Shown one piece after another: positions 2,022 through 12,054 of a stretch of DNA of 12,054 bases. The notes under the pieces were generated by a model, which did no database searches, was not told where the DNA came from, and was given only the letters and a program-made list of their open reading frames with translations. Both the position numbers and the translations under genes were made by a program. Location of the stretch: NCBI GenBank assembly GCA_015523565.1, contig WAKA01000018.1:1-12054 (forward strand), read 5' to 3'. The DNA comes from Candidatus Heimdallarchaeota archaeon (GTDB taxonomy: Archaea; Asgardarchaeota; Heimdallarchaeia; Heimdallarchaeales; Kariarchaeaceae). The first letter of the stretch is position 1, and each line of letters begins with the position of its first letter.

Positions 2022-4178
2022 ATGAAGCGCATGGGTTTCATTTTGTTGGGAATTATGCTTTTATTCGCAGGCATGGCAAAAGCCAATCCAGCAATTACAA
2101 TGAAAAATGACATTACAAGTAAGTCATATGAACAGCCAAAAGGTGTAGTCTTAATTGATGACATTCACAGTAACGATTATGCAGACGGTAATTTGGATTT
2201 GGTTTATGATGATCTGGAAAACATGGGTTATGTCCCGATGTATGCCTCAAATTTTTCCACATTTGAGGAAGGGCTTTCACATGCACACTATCTTGTCATG
2301 ACAGCCCCATACATGAATATTTCAGATACGGATATTCAAGCGATTTCATCATGGATGGGGAATGGCAGTAAAAATTTACTGATTGCATCCCGTGGTGACT
2401 TCAGTAGTATTTCCCGTTCTTCAATCAATGAGATTCTTTCTAGTGTGGGAGTCGAGATGAGGACCAATGATGACAATGTATACACAACGGATTCGAGTGC
2501 AAGAAAACCATGGTACATCGAGACAAATAATTTCAATACAGATTATGCAAACTTGTTCACAGGGGTTGATACAATAAATTTCTTCAGTCCCTCATCTGTT
2601 GTTACGGGAAGCAATACTATAGTATTGGTCAATGCAGAGGCACCAGCCTATCAATCCGATGAAAATCCACCAGAACCAAGTGTGATTTATGACAACACCC
2701 AAGATGGGGAGGGAGGTGAAAGGATACCGCTTGCAGGAATGGAATTTGTGAATGATGACAGAGTGGTTCTTGTAGGCACAACATTGTGGAGTGATTTTGA
2801 TTATGGGGATTCATCAGCAGAGGATACGGTCTTTTTTGGAAATTTGATGGAATATTTCACTGAACAGACAAGACAGCATGAGGAAATTGTCATTGACCTT
2901 CCCGATCCGAATCCACCTGTCATTAAAGTGGACAATCCCAGAAATGGAGGCACAGTTAAAGGGACGGTTCCTATAAGGTTTGACATCAAAGAGCCATTTG
3001 GCTTGAAATCAGTTGAGGTATGGATAGATGACAACTTTATGGGCAATGCTTCAGAATTCGATTGGGATACAACCACATATTCTGATGGAGGACATACCAT
3101 TAACATTACGGCAGTTGACAATTCAGGCAATGTTGCCACAAAACTAGTCAATGTCATTGTTGACCAAAATTTGGTTCCAAAAACTCGCAACCCTGTCAAA
3201 ATAATGACTTACAATATCAAGGAATCAGGAATTTTCCCCCAATGGTTAGATGTAGTTAAAGAAGAGAATCCAGACATTTTGGTGCTTGTTGAAACAGGTG
3301 ACTTTGACAATAACAACAATGAATTGATGAACAAATATTTGGATGAATTGAATGTTTACTTCATGGATTTTGCAAAATACGAGGGATATACCCAGCAGAA
3401 TATACAGGCACCATATAGTGGCATTACCATTTTCTCTAGATTTGGTATTTTGGATGCAGAGACAATTAGCTCTGTGACATTGGATTCAGGGGCAAGAAAA
3501 ACAGTTGCACTGCCGTTCCTTCATGCACAAGTGAATGTGTTTGAACAGACAGTGCATATCATTGGCGGTCACTTGACCTGTTGTCCAGGGGAGGACAATG
3601 AGAAATCAAGAGAGGAAGAGCAGGAAGGAATCATGAATTTCATGGATGGATTGGGCAATGTTCCAATAATATATTTGGGAGACATGAACAGTAATTCACC
3701 AATGGATCCAGGAACGCATGACCTTGGAACAAAGCCCATAGAAATAGTTGTTGATCCCAGTAATCCCCAAACTGCAATCAGGCACGAATTCAAGGATGTA
3801 TATCTTGAAACAAATCCAGACAAGATAGAACCGACCTACATTGCATCAGGTCTTGAGTCAAGAATTGATTTCATTTTTGTCAATCAATGGTTCTTTAATA
3901 GAATTATTAATTCAACAATTGGAGACACGCCCAGTGCAAGGGAAGGAAGCGATCATGTCCCAGTGGATGTATTTTTGGATATGAAGAATTTGACAAAGCC
4001 TGCAGAGATTTCACATACGTTTTCGACACAAACACCAGAACCATCCAGCAGTGAATTTATTGAAAGCTCCGCAGTAACCCCGTCTCCAATTGAGTTGACA
4101 TTCATGTTTACCGCAATTGCAATTAATTTAATAATTAATGGAAGAAAGAAGAAATACCTTGCAAAAACTGAAAAATAG
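2022..4178 (+). CDS. Cell-surface endonuclease/exonuclease/phosphatase (EEP) family protein: signal peptide, GIFT/DUF4350-like domain, Ig-like (Big) domain, EEP domain, CTERM-like anchor
   Basis: Signal peptide MKRMGFILLGIMLLFAGMAKA. VVLIDDIHSNDY...RVVLVG..LWSD resembles the GldG/IFT52 (GIFT) fold. PPVIKVDNP...WDTTTYSDGGHTINITAVDNSGN is a typical Big/Ig repeat (about 2901-3168). EEP motifs in order: IMTYNI, DILVLVE, GHL, LGDMN, RIDFIF, GSDHVPV. Ends with an S/T/P linker, TPSPIELTFMFTAIAINLII and RKKK. Confidence 0.9.
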   Translation: MKRMGFILLGIMLLFAGMAKANPAITMKNDITSKSYEQPKGVVLIDDIHSNDYADGNLDLVYDDLENMGYVPMYASNFSTFEEGLSHAHYLVMTAPYMNISDTDIQAISSWMGNGSKNLLIASRGDFSSISRSSINEILSSVGVEMRTNDDNVYTTDSSARKPWYIETNNFNTDYANLFTGVDTINFFSPSSVVTGSNTIVLVNAEAPAYQSDENPPEPSVIYDNTQDGEGGERIPLAGMEFVNDDRVVLVGTTLWSDFDYGDSSAEDTVFFGNLMEYFTEQTRQHEEIVIDLPDPNPPVIKVDNPRNGGTVKGTVPIRFDIKEPFGLKSVEVWIDDNFMGNASEFDWDTTTYSDGGHTINITAVDNSGNVATKLVNVIVDQNLVPKTRNPVKIMTYNIKESGIFPQWLDVVKEENPDILVLVETGDFDNNNNELMNKYLDELNVYFMDFAKYEGYTQQNIQAPYSGITIFSRFGILDAETISSVTLDSGARKTVALPFLHAQVNVFEQTVHIIGGHLTCCPGEDNEKSREEEQEGIMNFMDGLGNVPIIYLGDMNSNSPMDPGTHDLGTKPIEIVVDPSNPQTAIRHEFKDVYLETNPDKIEPTYIASGLESRIDFIFVNQWFFNRIINSTIGDTPSAREGSDHVPVDVFLDMKNLTKPAEISHTFSTQTPEPSSSEFIESSAVTPSPIELTFMFTAIAINLIINGRKKKYLAKTEK

Positions 4179-4226: not shown

Positions 4227-6347
4227 ATGACCAATGAACTAGAAGATTTAGATGCAAGATTCAAGCAAATTGCAACTGTTGTCATGGCAGCGGTTTATGC
4301 TACAATCAAGGATCTTGCACCAGATTCCATCACAATATTGCCAAATGTTGTAATCAATAGCGAAAGTTTTGGCTTGTTGATGTTGGGAACTGGCGCTTTA
4401 ATTTTCGGAAAAGGCATAGGTGCAACCTCAGCAGGTTTGGGGGTAATTTTTGATGAGTTTAAAGTAGTATTGGATGGGCAACCCTTGCCAGCGATTAATA
4501 TAGGATTGATCTTTTCAACAGTTGCACTATCCGTAAGCACTTGGTTGACTGGATTTTTGGAGAACGCAAGAATTGGAGATTATATCCCAGAAAACTTCCA
4601 AGAAATATTTTCTGGAAGGGAACTTGTCAAAGTCTCAAGGAAAACTGTAGTTTCAGTGGTCGGATTGTCATTGGCGAACAACTTCTTTTATGCATTTGGT
4701 GGTCAATTGATGGAAGGGGCACCAATAGGAAATGCGACAATGTTGTTTTTGACAGCTTTCTTGAGAGACGCCATTTTGCTGGTTGTTGGCATGCCTATTC
4801 TTTTGATAAGCTATGAATTCATTGAAGTTTACAATCAAAAGAAAGAAAGAATAATAGAAGAGCTGAATAAGGATATCCTATACAAAATAGAGGTCATGAA
4901 ATCGGCAGAGATAATCAATGTAGAACTTCCAGAAAATGCATTGAAAGAAGGTGTTTGGACACCCATTTCGGTAGAACTTATGAATCCCTCTAAAAAGAAA
5001 ACAGCCTACAACATTGAAGCTGTTTTCACGGCCAATTTTTATCCAGAACTGGATGCAACACCTGTATTGGATCCTGGAATGGGATGGAGACAGAATTTTT
5101 ACGTACTTCCACGAAAACAGGAAAAAATAACGGGGAGAATAAGAATCACACCGAAAAAGCCAAAGAAATTCAAATTTTCAGAACCAGAGGAAACCATTGT
5201 AGAAATTGAAGCGAATTCAAGAAAAAAAGGGGGACCCTTGGTAGCTCTTTTGGGACTTTCTGGATTGAACTTTGGTGCTTTGGGACTTTCTCTTGTATGG
5301 GAGCAAATTCAGGAGTATGTCAAAAATCCAAATCTTCTGCAAAAACAAGTTTTAGAATCATTGCAAGTTATCTCAAATGTCCTTATTGCGGAAATATTGT
5401 TGTTCATTGGTGCAATATCTACCCAATACTTTATGGCCAAAAGAAAATCAAAAGTATATTCCTCGAAAATTAGTTTTGCCTCAGACATTGATGATCAAAA
5501 AATAGAAGCAGTTAAGGAAAAGGCATTAAAACTGTTCATGAAAAAATATGGAAAACCATTAGCAATCATGTTTAGATCTCTGATAGGAATTGGTACAATC
5601 ATAACTTTTGCATATTTTGGTTATAACGCATTCATGATATCTGTAAATCCAGATTCCAGATTATCAAGCAACAATGATTTTGCCATCATTTCAGCCATTG
5701 GTTTGGGATTATGGGTATTTGGGTTTAGAGGCATGCAGATCCTTAATGAAATCACCACGGGTAAATCGACAAGAAATGCCAATAATTTCATTAGAGAATT
5801 CATACCTCTTGGAAATATTGAAGCTAACATTCCAACAGAAGTGATTCTAAGAATAGTGAATATTTCGGAATACCCTGGAATGAGGGTGTTGTTAAAATCA
5901 GATTCAGCCATTTCGCCACCAATGATTGAGTTGCATACTGAACCTGGAGAACTTGCACAGGTGAAAATTGTATTGACTGCGGATATGGGAGACTCACAAA
6001 ACATTCTTGCACTGGCATATCCATTTTTTGATAAAAACAAAAAGCTAATTCCATTTGAAGAGGCTGAACCATTGGCAAAGCAGGAGATTGACTTTAAGAT
6101 TACCCCGCCTGGCACAATGGGGATGTCCAAAGAACAAGAAAAGAAAGTCAAGACAGTGGGGGCCATGGTGACAGGATTTGCAGGAATTTTGACTGTATTG
6201 GGCCAAGTACTCCAAATCGGAAACACATTCGATTTTATCATAAATAACGCACCTACCATTTTAGCCTTGCAGGTTCCACTTATGGCAGGTTATTTCCGCG
6301 TTTCTTCACTTCTGAAACGTTCAAAAGCAGGAGGTATTGATTTATGA
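4227..6347 (+). CDS. Polytopic membrane protein: ECF transporter S-component-like N-terminal domain, two Ig-like beta-sandwich domains and about six further TM helices
   Basis: The first ~200 aa (KQIATVVMAAVYA...GALIFGKGIGATSAGLGVIFDEF...STWLTGFL...) follow the S-component helix pattern. Two beta-rich soluble segments (GVWTPISVELMNPS...LDPGMGWRQNFYVLP; ANIPTEVILRIVNIS...TEPGELAQVKIVLTA) are each followed by TM hairpins. The stop overlaps the next start (ATGA). Confidence 0.75.
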   Translation: MTNELEDLDARFKQIATVVMAAVYATIKDLAPDSITILPNVVINSESFGLLMLGTGALIFGKGIGATSAGLGVIFDEFKVVLDGQPLPAINIGLIFSTVALSVSTWLTGFLENARIGDYIPENFQEIFSGRELVKVSRKTVVSVVGLSLANNFFYAFGGQLMEGAPIGNATMLFLTAFLRDAILLVVGMPILLISYEFIEVYNQKKERIIEELNKDILYKIEVMKSAEIINVELPENALKEGVWTPISVELMNPSKKKTAYNIEAVFTANFYPELDATPVLDPGMGWRQNFYVLPRKQEKITGRIRITPKKPKKFKFSEPEETIVEIEANSRKKGGPLVALLGLSGLNFGALGLSLVWEQIQEYVKNPNLLQKQVLESLQVISNVLIAEILLFIGAISTQYFMAKRKSKVYSSKISFASDIDDQKIEAVKEKALKLFMKKYGKPLAIMFRSLIGIGTIITFAYFGYNAFMISVNPDSRLSSNNDFAIISAIGLGLWVFGFRGMQILNEITTGKSTRNANNFIREFIPLGNIEANIPTEVILRIVNISEYPGMRVLLKSDSAISPPMIELHTEPGELAQVKIVLTADMGDSQNILALAYPFFDKNKKLIPFEEAEPLAKQEIDFKITPPGTMGMSKEQEKKVKTVGAMVTGFAGILTVLGQVLQIGNTFDFIINNAPTILALQVPLMAGYFRVSSLLKRSKAGGIDL
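6329..6335 (+). promoter_or_regulatory. Shine-Dalgarno site for the 6344 gene
   Basis: AGGAGGT ends 8 nt before ATG 6344, inside the upstream CDS. Confidence 0.7.
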
Positions 6348-8137
6348 AAATTTATGTAATTGCAATATTTCTGATCATTTCAATTGGAGCAGGGGGGACA
6401 TTCACATATCTCGCATATTCACAGCCAAAGATCAAATTAAATCCAACAATAGAGACAGAGGCATTCGAATCTGTGGAAAACTTGAGCATTATTGTCCAAG
6501 ACAAATTAAACACAAAAATAAAAGAATATGAGGAATTAGGAACCCTGCTTAAAAATTACTTGAAAAGCTCGTTGCTTTTCAAGATAAGACCAGAAAATAA
6601 GGAAGCTTATTACCATAACAAGGCATTTGAAGATTCAATTCCAGGACTCGGATATGATGAGATCTACAATAATACAATCTCAAAAGATGTGGCCGCGATA
6701 ACATTTTCCCCAAGTGTTTTCGATGAAAGTTATCAAAAATCCTATCTTTCAAATTCAACAGAACCAGAGAGCCCATACAAACATGTTCCAACAAATTTGT
6801 TGGATGAGATCAATAAAACATCAAGCCTGGTTGATTTGTGGAAGTCAATAGACAGAAGTGACATTAGTTACATGCAGTTCGGGTCTTCTGATGGATTTTT
6901 ATTGACATATCCATATACAAAACTTTCAAAATCGTATGACTTCAAGACAGATCCATGGTATGAAAGTGGACTTACAGGGTCAAAAGACATTGTAATTGCA
7001 ATAGATGTTTCAGGGTCGCTTAATCAGACCCAATTTGAAAGCATCAAAAATTCCACTTCCAAAATTGTTGATTCATTTTCCACATCTGACAGGTTTACGA
7101 TCATTGCATTTTCTGACAAAATCAATTACTTTTCCCAAAACTTGGTTGTTGCCACAGATGAAATTAAATTAGACGCGATTAATTTTATAAAACGATTGGA
7201 ACTTGGGGGATTATCCGATATTTCAGAAGGAATTGTTTCTGGACTTAAGATTCTTGGCAATGATGGATATGAAAGAAACCAAAAAATCATGATTGGCATT
7301 ACAGACGGTTTTCCCAATACAGGAATATTGGATAACATAACCTTGGCAAAAACCATCTCAAAGGAAAATGGGCTTGCCAAATCCACAGTGCTACTTTACG
7401 GTGTTAATGACAAAACCAACGATGATTTACTTGGCTTAATTGCGAATCAGACAAATGGATACTATGTAAATGCAAATACATCAAGGAAAATCATTGAAGA
7501 AATACCAAACTACAATAAGTTTTTTGAAAATAGTACGAATGAATTCATTTCATGGAGCCTTCCTTTTGTCAACAAGAGAATGAACAGAATAGAGGTAAAC
7601 CTTTCACTTTCTGTTTCCTTGGAAAACAAGGCATTGGGTGTTTTCAATTTAGAAATAGACATTCGACCAATTGTAGACATACTCATTGAAAGCAGAAAAT
7701 ATAAAGATCAAGAGATTTTCATTTCAAATGTAGGAAAGGGGATATTTGCCCATCCTGTCTTCAATGAGTTTTTCATCAATACAAAAACAAATGAAGATAT
7801 CCAAAAATCGTTTTTAGAGTTTACAAATGACGCTCCAGAACTTGAAAATAATTTCAACACATTCTTACGTACAAAACAACAAAAACTGTCATTTGAGGAT
7901 ATCAATGGAAGAAAATACTTCAATACATTCAGGTATCTTGAACAGACAGGACTTATTCTCGGGATCATTGTACCTTACGACAGTATCATACCGCAATCAA
8001 TAACGAATAAACTCAAAGGGTTGGATTTGAATTTTCAAACATTCCAAAACTTATTGCCAACCTATGCATTTGCAATTTTTGTGTCGCTGGTTATTATTGC
8101 ATTAAGAAAAAGAATATTTGAGGAGGCAGAGCAATGA
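6344..8137 (+). CDS. alpha2delta (CACNA2D)/CACHD1-like protein: VWA_N/dCache_1 domain with inserted MIDAS-type VWA domain and N- and C-terminal membrane segments
   Basis: Ordered motifs YYHNK, ISKDVAAI, LLDEINKTSSLVDLWK, YMQFGSSDGFLLTYP, YDFKTDPWY, SKDIVIAIDVSGS (DxSxS at 7004-7018), DRFTIIAFSD, ITDG (7298-7309), WSLPF, LGVFNLEID and IFAHP parallel the alpha2delta-1 motifs as I recall them. Hydrophobic N-terminus; C-terminal TM YAFAIFVSLVIIAL followed by RKR. Confidence 0.88.
   Translation: MKIYVIAIFLIISIGAGGTFTYLAYSQPKIKLNPTIETEAFESVENLSIIVQDKLNTKIKEYEELGTLLKNYLKSSLLFKIRPENKEAYYHNKAFEDSIPGLGYDEIYNNTISKDVAAITFSPSVFDESYQKSYLSNSTEPESPYKHVPTNLLDEINKTSSLVDLWKSIDRSDISYMQFGSSDGFLLTYPYTKLSKSYDFKTDPWYESGLTGSKDIVIAIDVSGSLNQTQFESIKNSTSKIVDSFSTSDRFTIIAFSDKINYFSQNLVVATDEIKLDAINFIKRLELGGLSDISEGIVSGLKILGNDGYERNQKIMIGITDGFPNTGILDNITLAKTISKENGLAKSTVLLYGVNDKTNDDLLGLIANQTNGYYVNANTSRKIIEEIPNYNKFFENSTNEFISWSLPFVNKRMNRIEVNLSLSVSLENKALGVFNLEIDIRPIVDILIESRKYKDQEIFISNVGKGIFAHPVFNEFFINTKTNEDIQKSFLEFTNDAPELENNFNTFLRTKQQKLSFEDINGRKYFNTFRYLEQTGLILGIIVPYDSIIPQSITNKLKGLDLNFQTFQNLLPTYAFAIFVSLVIIALRKRIFEEAEQ
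8120..8126 (+). promoter_or_regulatory. Shine-Dalgarno site for the 8134 gene
   Basis: GAGGAGG ends 7 nt before ATG 8134; ATGA start/stop overlap at 8134-8137. Confidence 0.7.
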
Positions 8138-10635
8138 GCGAAAATAATGATAAACCAGATAATATTGTCAAAAATACAGTTGAGGAAAACCAACAGCAAG
8201 TCGAGGAACCCCAACAAGTGGAAGAGCAACAGCAAGTCGAGGAACCCCAACAAGTGGAAGAGCAACAGCAAGTCGAGGAACCCCAACAAGAGGAAGAGCA
8301 ACAGCAAGAGGAAGAACCCCAACAAGAGGAAGAGCAACAGCAAGAGGAAGAACCCCAACAAGAGGAAGAACCTCAACAAGAGGAAATGAAAGACAAAGAA
8401 ACAGATCAAAAGCAAGAAAGCGAAATGGTGAACATTGATGAGTTAATAGAAAAGAGTATAGAAGAAACAAAGACAAGCATTCCCAAATTCTACCATTTAG
8501 GAGAATTGAAAATACAAAGTAAATTTCAAAAAAGACTAAGGAATTTCAATAAGCTTATTGCATATGCCTTAATTCCATTGCTCATTATTGTCTTTGGAAC
8601 TATTTTCAATTTATATGGCATTAGTCAATACGTTCAGGTCAACAATACAAATGATGCACATCAAATCATGATCAATGGAACACAATCAGTTATTCTTCCT
8701 GTTGCCAAAAACATTGATTCAAAATTTTCATCAATTCTTGATTCTATTCAAGACTTTCAAGCTAAACTTAATTCAAATTGGACTTTTCCTGTTATCAAAA
8801 GTTTCCCTGCCAATGATACAGGATTAACACCTGGTTCGTATTTTTCAGAGAAGCATAATGGGACAATCGATTTGCTTGTTTCCTCATATTTCCTTTGGAT
8901 GAATTCAACAACGGGGAACCAGACAATAGCAGAGACATCTGCATTGACAGGTTTTTTCCAGTCATTGTATTTTGCAAATCCAAATATTCTCTATCTTCGT
9001 ACAATCTTTGATGATGGAGTTGTAAGAACATTTCCACATTTGGAAGAAAACACAAGCAACTTCAAACCATTAACCTACAAATGGTATAATGAAACCAAAC
9101 AGTTGAATTCAACAAATACAATTTTAAAAACGGTGTGGGTGGATCCCGTCACCAATAAGCATAGCATAGTCCTGTCTAAAAAATTTGAAATGAAAGGAAA
9201 AGAAAGAGGAATAATTGAATTGGTTGTTGACTTGTCATTTATTGACTCCTTGTTACGTAAATATTCTTCCAAAAATGAAGTGCCAATTGTCCTTAATCGA
9301 GACCATAAAGTTGTGTTTCATCCATCCTTAAAATTAGGAGCTTTTGATTGGAATGAAACATACATAAACCAGACATTGACATCATTGGAAAACACAACGG
9401 AATCAAAGATGTTGGAAAGTTTAGCCAGCCAACCATTTAATTCCTCTTCTTATACAGAAATGAAGACCAATGACACGACATCTCTTGTATGGAGATTGAA
9501 AATTAATTCAACAGATTTCATTTTCCTCTTCCAACTGAAGTTATCGAATAATAAGGTGATCTCCACATTTGATTCTACAGAGTTATTTGGGATACCTGGA
9601 ATAGTGGCATTTATGCTTTCTCTTGTTGCTCTGTTACTCCATGTCAATTATGGAATTATGGAGAATGTCGATTTTGAAAAAATGATTGATAAAATCAACA
9701 AGAAAATAAAAAGCAATAAGTTAATTGACAGCTTCAAAGGCTCAATAGACTCGTTGACGTCTGGAGTATTGCTTCAAGAAGTGACAGAGAAAGTATCTGA
9801 AGAAATTGAGAGCAAAGGAGAGGAATTACGCGAAAGCATTGAAGAAAAAATAGATGAGAAAGTCAAGAGTGTGCAGAGTGCAATTGACGAGAAACTTGCA
9901 CTTCTTGAAGAGGAAGAGGATGAAGATTCCCATCAAATTGTCAATGAAGTCTTTGACAAACCTAAAATCATTTCCAGAGTTCTTGATGGATTTGCCAAAA
10001 ATCCTGTACTTTACCTGAAAAATAAGATAGAAACCAAAGGCATTGACTTAAATGCAATCAAGAACGGAGATTTCTCATCTCTTCAAAATCTTGCAACCGA
10101 GCCAGAAAAACTGATTACAGTCTTAATTTCTGGAGGTCCAATTCCCTTGTCTGAACTGGCAAAAATCAGCAAGGTAAGCAAAGCGAAAATGGAACATTTC
10201 TTAGGGAGCTTGCCTGCTGAATCAGGTGTCTATCTCGACGAGAAAAATGATCAAGTGGAGGTGGACAAGGATCGGTTTGTCACTAACTTAAAAGACATAG
10301 GACCTCGTTTCAAATTGTTTTTCAAGGATCCCGATAAATACCTGCAAATGGTTCCAGGCAACAACTTTGAAAAGATTGAGAACTACAGAAGCAATATCAA
10401 GCAAGTTATCAAACCATTGATTGCAGGAGATGAAATGCCCTTGGAAGATGTTGCCAAATTATTGGGATTAAAACAGCAAGATGCCAAAGACCTTTTACTT
10501 TATAGCCAGAAAAAGGCAGACGTCGGATTGAAAATAAAGCGAAAGAAAGTTAGGGCGAATCCTGATAAGTTGAAAGAAAACCTGCAACCTTTTGTTGGCT
10601 CAATGCTAAAAGAACTTGTCACAAAATACGTTTAA
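8134..10635 (+). CDS. Two-TM dCache_1 sensor protein with acidic Glu/Gln repeat N-tail, cytoplasmic acidic coiled coil and duplicated winged-helix-like C-terminal domain
   Basis: TM1 at about 8554-8622, TM2 at about 9583-9657. Between them lie the Cache motifs NPNILYL..FDDGVVRTFP, FKPLTYKWY, VWVDPVT, GIIELVVDL and LNRDHKVVFHP. The C-terminus has two repeats (LISGGPIPLSELAKISKVSKAKMEHFL; LIAGDEMPLEDVAKLLGLKQQDAKDLL) with an HTH pattern. Confidence 0.82.
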   Translation: MSENNDKPDNIVKNTVEENQQQVEEPQQVEEQQQVEEPQQVEEQQQVEEPQQEEEQQQEEEPQQEEEQQQEEEPQQEEEPQQEEMKDKETDQKQESEMVNIDELIEKSIEETKTSIPKFYHLGELKIQSKFQKRLRNFNKLIAYALIPLLIIVFGTIFNLYGISQYVQVNNTNDAHQIMINGTQSVILPVAKNIDSKFSSILDSIQDFQAKLNSNWTFPVIKSFPANDTGLTPGSYFSEKHNGTIDLLVSSYFLWMNSTTGNQTIAETSALTGFFQSLYFANPNILYLRTIFDDGVVRTFPHLEENTSNFKPLTYKWYNETKQLNSTNTILKTVWVDPVTNKHSIVLSKKFEMKGKERGIIELVVDLSFIDSLLRKYSSKNEVPIVLNRDHKVVFHPSLKLGAFDWNETYINQTLTSLENTTESKMLESLASQPFNSSSYTEMKTNDTTSLVWRLKINSTDFIFLFQLKLSNNKVISTFDSTELFGIPGIVAFMLSLVALLLHVNYGIMENVDFEKMIDKINKKIKSNKLIDSFKGSIDSLTSGVLLQEVTEKVSEEIESKGEELRESIEEKIDEKVKSVQSAIDEKLALLEEEEDEDSHQIVNEVFDKPKIISRVLDGFAKNPVLYLKNKIETKGIDLNAIKNGDFSSLQNLATEPEKLITVLISGGPIPLSELAKISKVSKAKMEHFLGSLPAESGVYLDEKNDQVEVDKDRFVTNLKDIGPRFKLFFKDPDKYLQMVPGNNFEKIENYRSNIKQVIKPLIAGDEMPLEDVAKLLGLKQQDAKDLLLYSQKKADVGLKIKRKKVRANPDKLKENLQPFVGSMLKELVTKYV
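8191..8385 (+). repeat. Coding tandem repeat: five 36-bp units (each two 18-bp subunits) plus a partial unit, encoding QQQ(V/E)EEPQQ(V/E)EE
   Basis: CAACAGCAAGTCGAGGAACCCCAACAAGTGGAAGAG occurs identically at 8191 and 8227, with variants at 8263, 8299 and 8335. Units are contiguous, have no spacers and are in frame. Confidence 0.95.
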
Positions 10636-10651
10636 TCCATTTCATGCCAAA

Positions 10652-11914
10652 TCAAAATTCATTCTTTTTTTTTCTATAAATGACCATAATCCAAACACCA
10701 ACCAACAGGTACTCCAAATAAGTTTTCTGTGATGTCGTTTCAGAGACAGTTTCCTGTTTCTCTTTTGTTGTTTCATAATGGATGCCATCAACCAAAATTT
10801 TGTCAGGACTTTCAAAAACAATTGTTCTGAAACCATTTAATGGATCATATTTTCCTGGTTCAAATGAATTGTACATCTCAACCCATAAGGAATTACCGAC
10901 ATATTCCACTTTTGACACATGGTCATGTCCATAAAGGAATAAAGAAATGTTCAGTGACACGACATTGTTCCGAATTTTTTGATCATAGTCGTAATGTGCA
11001 AACAATATTTTCCGCTTGCCATGCCCATTTTGAAGCCGTTCACTTATTTGGTTCAAATAGCCATAATCAATCCCTGTAATATTGGAATTATAGCCGACAA
11101 AATAGAATTCATTCCATTCAAAATCAATTATGTTTTCAGGATACATGTATTGCTTCCAAATGTTTGAGGAGTGTTTCCTTGTCGGATAAAGATTCATCCA
11201 ATCATGATTGCCAGAAACCAAAAAGATCGGGAAGTTCCACATATCAAGGAAATCCAGACCTATATTGATAACCTGTTCGAACGTATATTTCGGTGGCTTG
11301 CCAGTTGTCTCATTGGTAAAATATGTCACACCCCCTTCAAGAAAATCACCAGTGATGATAACAAAATCAACCCCAGTACTTTCTATTTTTTGAAATACTT
11401 TTGTCACATTTTCCAGTGTAGACTTCCCTTCAATAAACATCGGTAAGTGAGTGTCTGAAACATGGGCAATTGTCAATGGCAAATCCTTTGCTTCTACAAT
11501 GTGAACAGAATGTGCCTGTGCATCAACGATTTGGGTGTTACCTGTCAAGAGAACAAGATCATAAGTTCCAATGGGCAATCCAAGGGGAAGAGACAGCTCG
11601 AAGTCCACCCCTTCTCCAGAAAGGTCTTCAGCAACAACGGTCAATGTTTTCTCTCCTTTCTTGCCTATTGCAACCGTAAACAGTTCACCTACAGGCTTTA
11701 ACAATTGAAGATGAATTATTCCATCTTGCAGAAGAATTGCAGGAAATGTTGCATGAGGGGATTTAATGTAATTATTTTTGTGATTGACAAAGTCAAAGGA
11801 CGTTGTTTCACGATAAGGTTTGTCAAAAGAAATTTTTGAAGGAGACGAAATGACAATCTGCGGAGAAATATATCCAATTAAAAGTAGAACGATTATGAAA
11901 AATTGCTTAAGCAT
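10652..11914 (-). CDS. Secreted, membrane-anchored calcineurin-like metallophosphoesterase
   Basis: All five metallophosphoesterase motifs are present: HVSDTH, ITGDF, SGNHD, FAH, GHDH. N-terminal signal (MLKQFFIIVLLLIGY) and a beta-rich N-domain. Thr/Glu linker, then YLEYLLVGVWIMVIY and RKKK. GAGGT (11924-11928, minus strand) favours ATG 11914 over TTG 11920. Convergent with the operon across a 16-bp gap. Confidence 0.9.
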   Translation of the reverse strand: MLKQFFIIVLLLIGYISPQIVISSPSKISFDKPYRETTSFDFVNHKNNYIKSPHATFPAILLQDGIIHLQLLKPVGELFTVAIGKKGEKTLTVVAEDLSGEGVDFELSLPLGLPIGTYDLVLLTGNTQIVDAQAHSVHIVEAKDLPLTIAHVSDTHLPMFIEGKSTLENVTKVFQKIESTGVDFVIITGDFLEGGVTYFTNETTGKPPKYTFEQVINIGLDFLDMWNFPIFLVSGNHDWMNLYPTRKHSSNIWKQYMYPENIIDFEWNEFYFVGYNSNITGIDYGYLNQISERLQNGHGKRKILFAHYDYDQKIRNNVVSLNISLFLYGHDHVSKVEYVGNSLWVEMYNSFEPGKYDPLNGFRTIVFESPDKILVDGIHYETTKEKQETVSETTSQKTYLEYLLVGVWIMVIYRKKKNEF

Positions 11915-12054
11915 ATCCAAACTACCTCTTATTTAGGATATACATAACATTAAAAACCATTAAGATAAAAAAATCATCATTCAATGATTAAAATGCGGTT
12001 ATTTAGGCTTATCATCCATAACAACATAAAACAGGTATTGCAAAATTTAAATAA

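Follow-up and report, generated by a model that had tools for sequence, protein, structure and literature searches.

A conserved dCache gene pair of Heimdallarchaeia with ancestry in common with alpha2delta and CACHD1

In the window, i.e. the whole stretch of 12,054 nucleotides that was analysed, genes C, A and B form a coupled series of three on the + strand (Table 1). Gene C overlaps the start of A by an ATGA and the start of B lies in the stop codon of A, again as an ATGA overlap (8134-8137). A preliminary description of this DNA had noted two overlapping genes, and both are present as open reading frames A and B; the pair had been thought to end at 9657, whereas B extends to 10635 and includes a cytoplasmic part of about 330 residues. 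A promoter scan stayed at chance level.

Table 1. Positions of the genes and of the features of their products in the window
Feature	Positions	Strand	Description
Gene C	4227-6347	+	706 aa; ECF S-component-like fold at aa 6-201, two Ig-like domains, more TM helices
Gene A	6344-8137	+	597 aa; TM/signal anchor, stalk helix, dCache_1 split by a VWA, TM
VWA insert of A	6983-7540	+	about aa 214-399; MIDAS-like DxSxS at aa 221-225
Gene B	8134-10635	+	833 aa; dCache_1 without VWA between two TM helices, preceded by an acidic N-tail and followed by a cytoplasmic region
Glu/Gln/Pro-rich tandem repeat in the N-tail of B	8182-8385	+	36-nt unit, 5.2 copies, 95% matches
Ectodomain of B	8626-9573	+	aa 165-480; predicted stalk-helix partner of the A ectodomain
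Cytoplasmic region of B	9640-10632	+	about 330 aa; begins with a charged, helical segment, followed by two candidate winged-helix-like repeats

The product of gene A consists of an N-terminal TM/signal anchor, a stalk helix, an enlarged (VWA_N-type) dCache_1 domain that is split by a VWA domain, and a C-terminal TM helix; a cytoplasmic output domain is absent. Pfam recognized the VWA at residues 215-382 (E 3.6e-14) and found none in B, in agreement with the earlier observation that only the first gene carries this domain. The DxSxS and TDG elements were present in every A examined; at the MIDAS Thr position, the window copy has a Ser and Hodarchaeales A has the Thr. Pfam did not detect dCache_1 in the window's own A and B proteins. 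This domain was found in 9/10 members of the A family and 7/11 members of the B family; VWA_N was recognized in 4 sequences of either family. A and B both lack Cys, both have two hydrophobic segments, and both display the TM-stalk-distal-proximal-TM layout of prokaryotic dCache_1 receptors. The best PDB matches of the A profile were CACHD1 and alpha2delta (E 9e-40 and 2e-39), and that of the B profile was CACHD1 (E 1.5e-18).

The two genes had also been described as paralogous on the basis of five pairs of short segments, among them DGFLLTYP/DGVVRTFP, YDFKTDPWY/FKPLTYKWY and IFAHP/VVFHP. Direct comparison of A with B by BLASTP was not significant (E 0.36). Comparison of the two family alignments by hhalign gave a probability of 99.9 and an E of 3.2e-36 over 371 columns, with a single gap, at the VWA, and aligned all five pairs of segments to each other. 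Smith-Waterman alignment of A, with its VWA removed, to B scored 89, compared with 43 ± 7 for 1000 shuffles, none of which scored as high. These sequence comparisons confirmed that A and B are paralogs.

The acidic repeat in the N-tail of B is lineage-specific and most orthologs are without it; in genome G001 the repeat is an assembly gap (a run of N, L032:9555-9908), because of which the gene is falsely split there. The matches of the C-terminal region to HTH domains were weak (E 0.046-0.07), and a search of the ESM Atlas with this tail gave no usable match. None of the known output families that were looked for (MCP, kinase, GGDEF, phosphatase) matched A or the window B tail. Across loci the tails vary, from 8 residues (B3_Heim) to a zinc ribbon, a TIR domain (the Hodarchaeales ortholog P0158, L058:7001-9151), and the long helical region of the window. 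We infer that this region is the output of the pair.

Among 400 Asgard genomes, full-length A was found in 12 (one of them cut by a contig end), all of which fall among the 83 genomes of class Heimdallarchaeia, where its presence is patchy (12/83). B orthologs were found in exactly the same 12 genomes, directly after A in every one, and A and B never occurred apart in the set of 400. The same order was seen at 8 further loci, one of them in a planctomycete. An assembly artefact could be ruled out, as the pair recurs in 20 loci. The window genome belongs to an order of Heimdallarchaeia that differs from Hodarchaeales, its family probably being Kariarchaeaceae, and its copy is divergent, which is why a first scan of the genome contigs with the window protein as query gave no match. 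In one Hodarchaeales copy (L066:1808-3592, G079:C161), a single stop codon interrupts A while B is intact, which may be due to a sequencing error or to decay. At four Hodarchaeales loci, a protein with a Cys/His-rich N-terminus and LRRs is encoded after B on the same strand (e.g. L066:5099-6550 and L037:10262-11743).

The survey of gene neighbourhoods, which had been proposed as a check for conserved pairing or fused versions, thus disclosed strict pairing, and fused versions exist as well. At four loci the stop codon of A is in frame with the start of B. The protein P0008 (L056:1416-4397; P0154 in a second assembly) joins A and B in 993 residues with loss of both middle TM helices, and P0020 (L057:2619-5210) joins them with the middle TM helices but without the VWA. 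These two proteins indicate that fusion of the A-B operon does happen. The neighbouring genes of P0008 appear to be archaeal; the contig of P0020 carries a sigma-70 gene and looks bacterial. Read-through references from the in-frame loci guided the alignment of B, as MAFFT by itself matched unfused B sequences to the A portion of the fusion. In the Planctomycetota MAG OFTM357 (L068:5821-11035), A and B are followed by an overlapping gene for a Ser/Thr kinase with a TM helix, and this A-B pair was probably transferred from archaea. The bacterial copies, those of the planctomycete and of another bacterial contig, were nested inside the archaeal A and B clades of the dCache tree, and show that lateral transfer of the module occurs.

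Homodimers are the usual form of bacterial dCache receptors, and we considered the possibility that A and B likewise form separate homodimers that are merely co-expressed in one pathway. When the ectodomains of the window copies were modelled as an A-B heterodimer, the complex scored 0.76 (best control, 0.00), the mark on this score being one that is reached by 58/80 solved pairs and 2/110 mismatched pairs, though also by close cousins of a true partner. Runs agreed in at least 97% of the contacts and the pLDDT of the partner was 85. The predicted interface is made of parallel, in-register stalk helices with their proximal ends together, and contains no VWA residue. This is a receptor-type dimer, and the passing score may reflect its likeness to solved dCache dimers. 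The model provides the confident heterodimer that had been anticipated for the two proteins. Two independent fusions, the absence of an output domain from A and the unbroken association of the two genes also speak against separate homodimers, which we regard as distinctly unlikely. A-B is predicted to work like a dCache receptor dimer.

The preliminary description had gone further, in proposing that this heterodimer is equivalent to the intramolecular dCache pair of alpha2delta and that fusion of such an operon could explain the eukaryotic architecture. This started from the premise that alpha2delta contains two tandem dCache_1 domains, which is incorrect: the two are nested in alpha2delta and CACHD1, the second dCache harbouring the first as an insertion (PMC8915833). 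We relied on this publication for the nesting because our HMM of the stalk helix lacked the sensitivity that eukaryotic proteins require. The natural fusion offered a comparison. The AlphaFold2 model of P0008 (pLDDT 84, pTM 0.82) keeps the stalk of B in the middle of the chain (helix 546-593; 36 bits), so that the fusion is tandem and not nested. Its best structural matches were CACHD1 and alpha2delta (E 6e-38), with a TM score of 0.41-0.44 and an rmsd of 20-25 Å for the whole protein, while the first half alone superposed on alpha2delta with an rmsd of about 6 Å over 489 residues. P0008 therefore matches alpha2delta domain by domain, not as a whole.

If the models are right, archaeal A and B probably pair side by side and are not nested as in the animal protein. 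The archaeal subunits would be tied to the membrane proximally, whereas the first dCache of alpha2delta would sit at the distal end of the stalk of the second. An A-B pair with the geometry of alpha2delta, turned into the eukaryotic protein by plain operon fusion, would fit the order of the genes, which matches that of the binding modules in alpha2delta, as well as the in-frame loci, the real fusions and the predicted heterodimer. Yet, the nesting of alpha2delta, the predicted parallel stalk interface and the failure of the fusion to superpose as a whole indicate that head-to-tail fusion by itself does not give the eukaryotic architecture, and this scenario is improbable.

The insertion of the VWA and the nesting of the two dCaches have been placed around LECA, with no prokaryotic source named (PMC8915833). 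In A, the spacing between the WY of the pocket and the DxSxS was 14 residues in 20/20 scored sequences, and it is 14 or 15 in eukaryotes. The VWA inserts of A and of eukaryotes are of similar length, and the junction spacing and a post-VWA helix are common to both. In the VWA tree, A and the eukaryotic VWAs were sisters (93/91), with VIT-type and cytoplasmic Asgard VWAs apart; an AU test did not reject the grouping of the A VWA with VIT-type VWAs (p 0.405). Eukaryotic sequences formed one clade with A outside, in both the dCache and the VWA tree, the eukaryotic set having been gathered with the A profile and labelled by Cys content, length and architecture rather than taxonomy, which biases the trees. 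The loop of A is 36-38 residues long, that of the eukaryotic first dCache mostly 17. Among the matches listed in a metagenome scan, the dCache-VWA junctions were Cys-rich and eukaryote-like.

These data could also be taken to mean that dCache[VWA] reached archaea from early eukaryotes or via bacteria, or that a VWA entered the same loop independently, in which case A-B would be uninformative on the archaeal ancestor. The patchy presence of A, the bacterial copies and the neutral AU test are compatible with this, as are three bacterial sequences that adjoin the eukaryotic first dCache in the dCache tree (98/91). Transfer from eukaryotes is disfavoured by the single eukaryotic clade outside of which A falls and by the long A loop. 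The nesting of the bacterial copies within the archaeal clades, the identical junction spacing and the shared helix also count against such scenarios. We consider transfer or convergence rather unlikely. The best reading is that a single VWA insertion, shared by A with alpha2delta and CACHD1, took place before LECA, contrary to the published placement (PMC8915833), which suggests that an alpha2delta-like module predates eukaryotes. The prokaryotic dCache[VWA], whose junction is identical and which occurs mostly in Heimdallarchaeia, shifts the VWA insertion to a time before eukaryotes; the bacterial copies and the weak trees limit claims of vertical descent.

The origin of the second, VWA-less dCache of eukaryotes was less easily traced. 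In the dCache tree, A, B, other enlarged dCaches (termed X) and both eukaryotic dCaches split from generic dCaches on a branch with support 99/96. The backbone of the full tree was unresolved: neither A with the first dCache nor B with the second was recovered. A with the first dCache appeared in only 59/200 bootstrap trees, and AU tests, applied to four groupings, rejected no alternative. The profile of the second dCache scored 100 bits with A, 87 with B, 82 with X and 54 with generic domains, and B fitted the first eukaryotic dCache profile better than the second in 17/18 cases. Profile scoring did not, therefore, single out B as the closest to the second dCache.

A local signature was more informative. 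In the loop that follows K-I/V-A-P, an aromatic residue is present at +6 from a conserved F/Y in 40/49 second dCaches, in 9/10 B orthologs that keep the loop and in 5/9 X; it is rare at this position in A (1/17), which has an aromatic residue at +8 in 17/17 cases. The Pro at +3 is found in 31/49 second dCaches and 5/10 B, but in 0/9 X and 0/17 A. A tree that included the loop grouped B with the second dCache (82/60; 248/300 bootstrap trees). Window B has lost the long loop, and this evidence thus comes from its orthologs; furthermore, the occurrence of the +6 spacing in 5/9 X means that the signature may be ancestral. It favours a B-type source, if weakly, and argues against duplication of an A-type domain. 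That B lies closer to the eukaryotic second dCache than generic sensors do is borne out by the profile scores, the 99/96 branch, the loop signature and the loop-included tree. That B is its specific ancestor is favoured by the loop signature, while the AU tests leave every alternative standing.

One such alternative is that A is indeed the prokaryotic relative of the single dCache[VWA] module of eukaryotes and B only a local paralog, the second dCache having come from X or from a duplication that preceded the loss of the loop; the look of a split gene would then partly be a coincidence. The grouping of B with the second dCache was not recovered in the full tree and is neutral by the AU test (p 0.4), the scores of X and B with the profile of the second dCache are close to each other, and Asgard archaea often have enlarged dCaches in tandem pairs (matches in 109/400 genomes). 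Furthermore, eukaryotes also have proteins with a single dCache[VWA] (PMC8915833). Against it stand the Pro at +3, shared by B and the second dCache and found in neither X nor A, and the bootstrap trees that include the loop. We see this as a serious possibility that falls somewhat short of an even chance. A tentative idea, to which we give similar weight, is that the two-gene precursor itself survives: the archaeal ancestor of eukaryotes would have had A and B, and insertion of A after the stalk of B would have produced the nested chain. A side-by-side, amino-acid-sensing heterodimer would thereby have become a nested single chain.

The motif that defines amino-acid-binding dCaches (dCache_1AA; YxxxxRxW ... 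Y ... D) is not kept in the window proteins: R, Y and D are replaced by D, F and E, respectively, in A and by Y, W and V in B. In contrast, it is intact, or changed from Y to F only, in both pockets of the Hodarchaeales, planctomycete and fusion orthologs. The ancestral form, as kept in Hodarchaeales, would sense amino acids in both pockets. Since both motifs have decayed in the window lineage, the ligand there is probably a protein or a surface structure.

A-B resembles three kinds of known proteins. It shares with alpha2delta (CACNA2D1-4; 7vfs_B, 8x90_B, 6jp5_F) and CACHD1 (8s7c_A, 9eq6_A) the enlarged VWA_N-type dCache_1, a VWA with a MIDAS-like site that is inserted at the same place and splits the amino-acid motif, and the presence of another dCache that lacks a VWA and has a related loop. 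It differs from them in being encoded by two genes, with two TM anchors per subunit, a predicted parallel dimer and a cytoplasmic tail on B; unlike in alpha2delta, Cys residues are absent, as are the cleavage that yields a disulfide-linked delta chain, the GPI region and the combination of a signal peptide with a single C-terminal anchor, and in the window copy the motif is degenerate. Eukaryotic proteins with a single dCache_1 and a VWA insertion (protists, invertebrates; PMC8915833) have the same domain layout as A, which is however prokaryotic, has an N-terminal membrane anchor, is always coupled to B and keeps the long loop. Finally, the bacterial amino-acid chemoreceptors PctA, Mlp24 and CtaA have the same TM-stalk-dCache-TM arrangement, a stalk dimer like the one predicted for A-B, and a motif that is intact in the Hodarchaeales orthologs. 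A-B is set apart from them by the lack of a HAMP/MCP/kinase output, the enlarged distal module, the VWA insert, the predicted heterodimer and the separate 99/96 branch. Neither an Asgard dCache[VWA] protein nor an A-B pair turned up in our literature search, outside of which lay the supplements of PMC12962969. A-B is a real, conserved two-gene module of common ancestry with alpha2delta/CACHD1, but its architecture places it outside that family.

The reading that we favour, with a probability of about 0.65, is that A and B form a heterodimeric dCache receptor of the alpha2delta type, that the VWA insertion antedates LECA, and that the second dCache of eukaryotes is B-like, with A inserted into B. 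Each subunit would be anchored by two TM helices and the two would pair through their parallel stalk helices, as in a bacterial dCache receptor dimer. A would contribute, through its VWA, a metal-dependent site of adhesion at the tip farthest from the membrane, and B a variable cytoplasmic output; binding at the VWA of A or in the Cache pockets would be relayed through the pair of stalks to B. The eukaryotic second dCache would most likely stem from a B-like domain that was joined to the first by insertion of A into B, not by plain fusion. The strict coupling of B to A, and the loop signature that B orthologs have in common with the second dCache, make B a candidate source for the nesting event. 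Furthermore, A-B provides small, soluble and testable models of what the gabapentin-binding module originally did, prior to its acquisition by voltage-gated calcium channels.

Alpha2delta is an animal calcium-channel subunit and the target of gabapentin, association with a voltage-gated channel or with Wnt receptors being a trait of the alpha2delta/CACHD1 family, and A-B might similarly be an auxiliary subunit of an ion channel. Homology to alpha2delta and the MIDAS-like site are in keeping with this, as is the presence of the multi-TM gene C, translationally coupled upstream of A. Yet, the N-terminal fold of gene C resembles an ECF S-component (Z 14.5, rmsd 3.0, 160 aligned residues; S-components occupied the top nine rows) and not a channel, and C is not adjacent to the Hodarchaeales copies of A-B. 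The window genome, which is 90% complete, gave no match to Ion_trans (PF00520), a circumstantial argument. A role as a channel subunit therefore seems very improbable. No whole-protein match to gene C was found with Foldseek, no match in Pfam and no usable one in the ESM Atlas. Its family is present, full-length or split, in 29/400 Asgard genomes, with a paralog in the window genome itself (G000:C40:387-2498, L051). It adjoins A in the order to which the window belongs and is also found without A-B; in G005 it adjoins A on the opposite strand. C is therefore a possible, not an obligatory, membrane partner of the pair in the window lineage.

A few minor observations concern other genes. Upstream of C, the window encodes a secreted 718-residue protein with Ig (Big_7) and endonuclease/exonuclease/phosphatase domains (2022-4178), a gene that also precedes C in two genomes of the same genus. 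A secreted metallophosphoesterase (10652-11920, - strand) converges on B, and its C-terminal K/R-rich anchor resembles those of open reading frames 397-1233 and 2022-4178. Two bacterial loci (L070:4669-6984 and L074:4459-6639) encode Ser/Thr kinases that carry an enlarged dCache of the VWA_N type at the C-terminus; bacterial domains of this sort branch near the eukaryotic first dCache. The window genome contains a second tandem pair (G000:C3:2-3883, L050), made of a dCache-HAMP-TPR-VWA protein (881 residues, cytoplasmic VWA) followed by a dCache-HAMP protein, for which we found no published family. This pair has tandem genes and enlarged dCaches in common with A-B but differs by the presence of HAMP and by a cytoplasmic VWA that is far from that of A in the VWA tree; pairs of this type are widespread in Asgard archaea.
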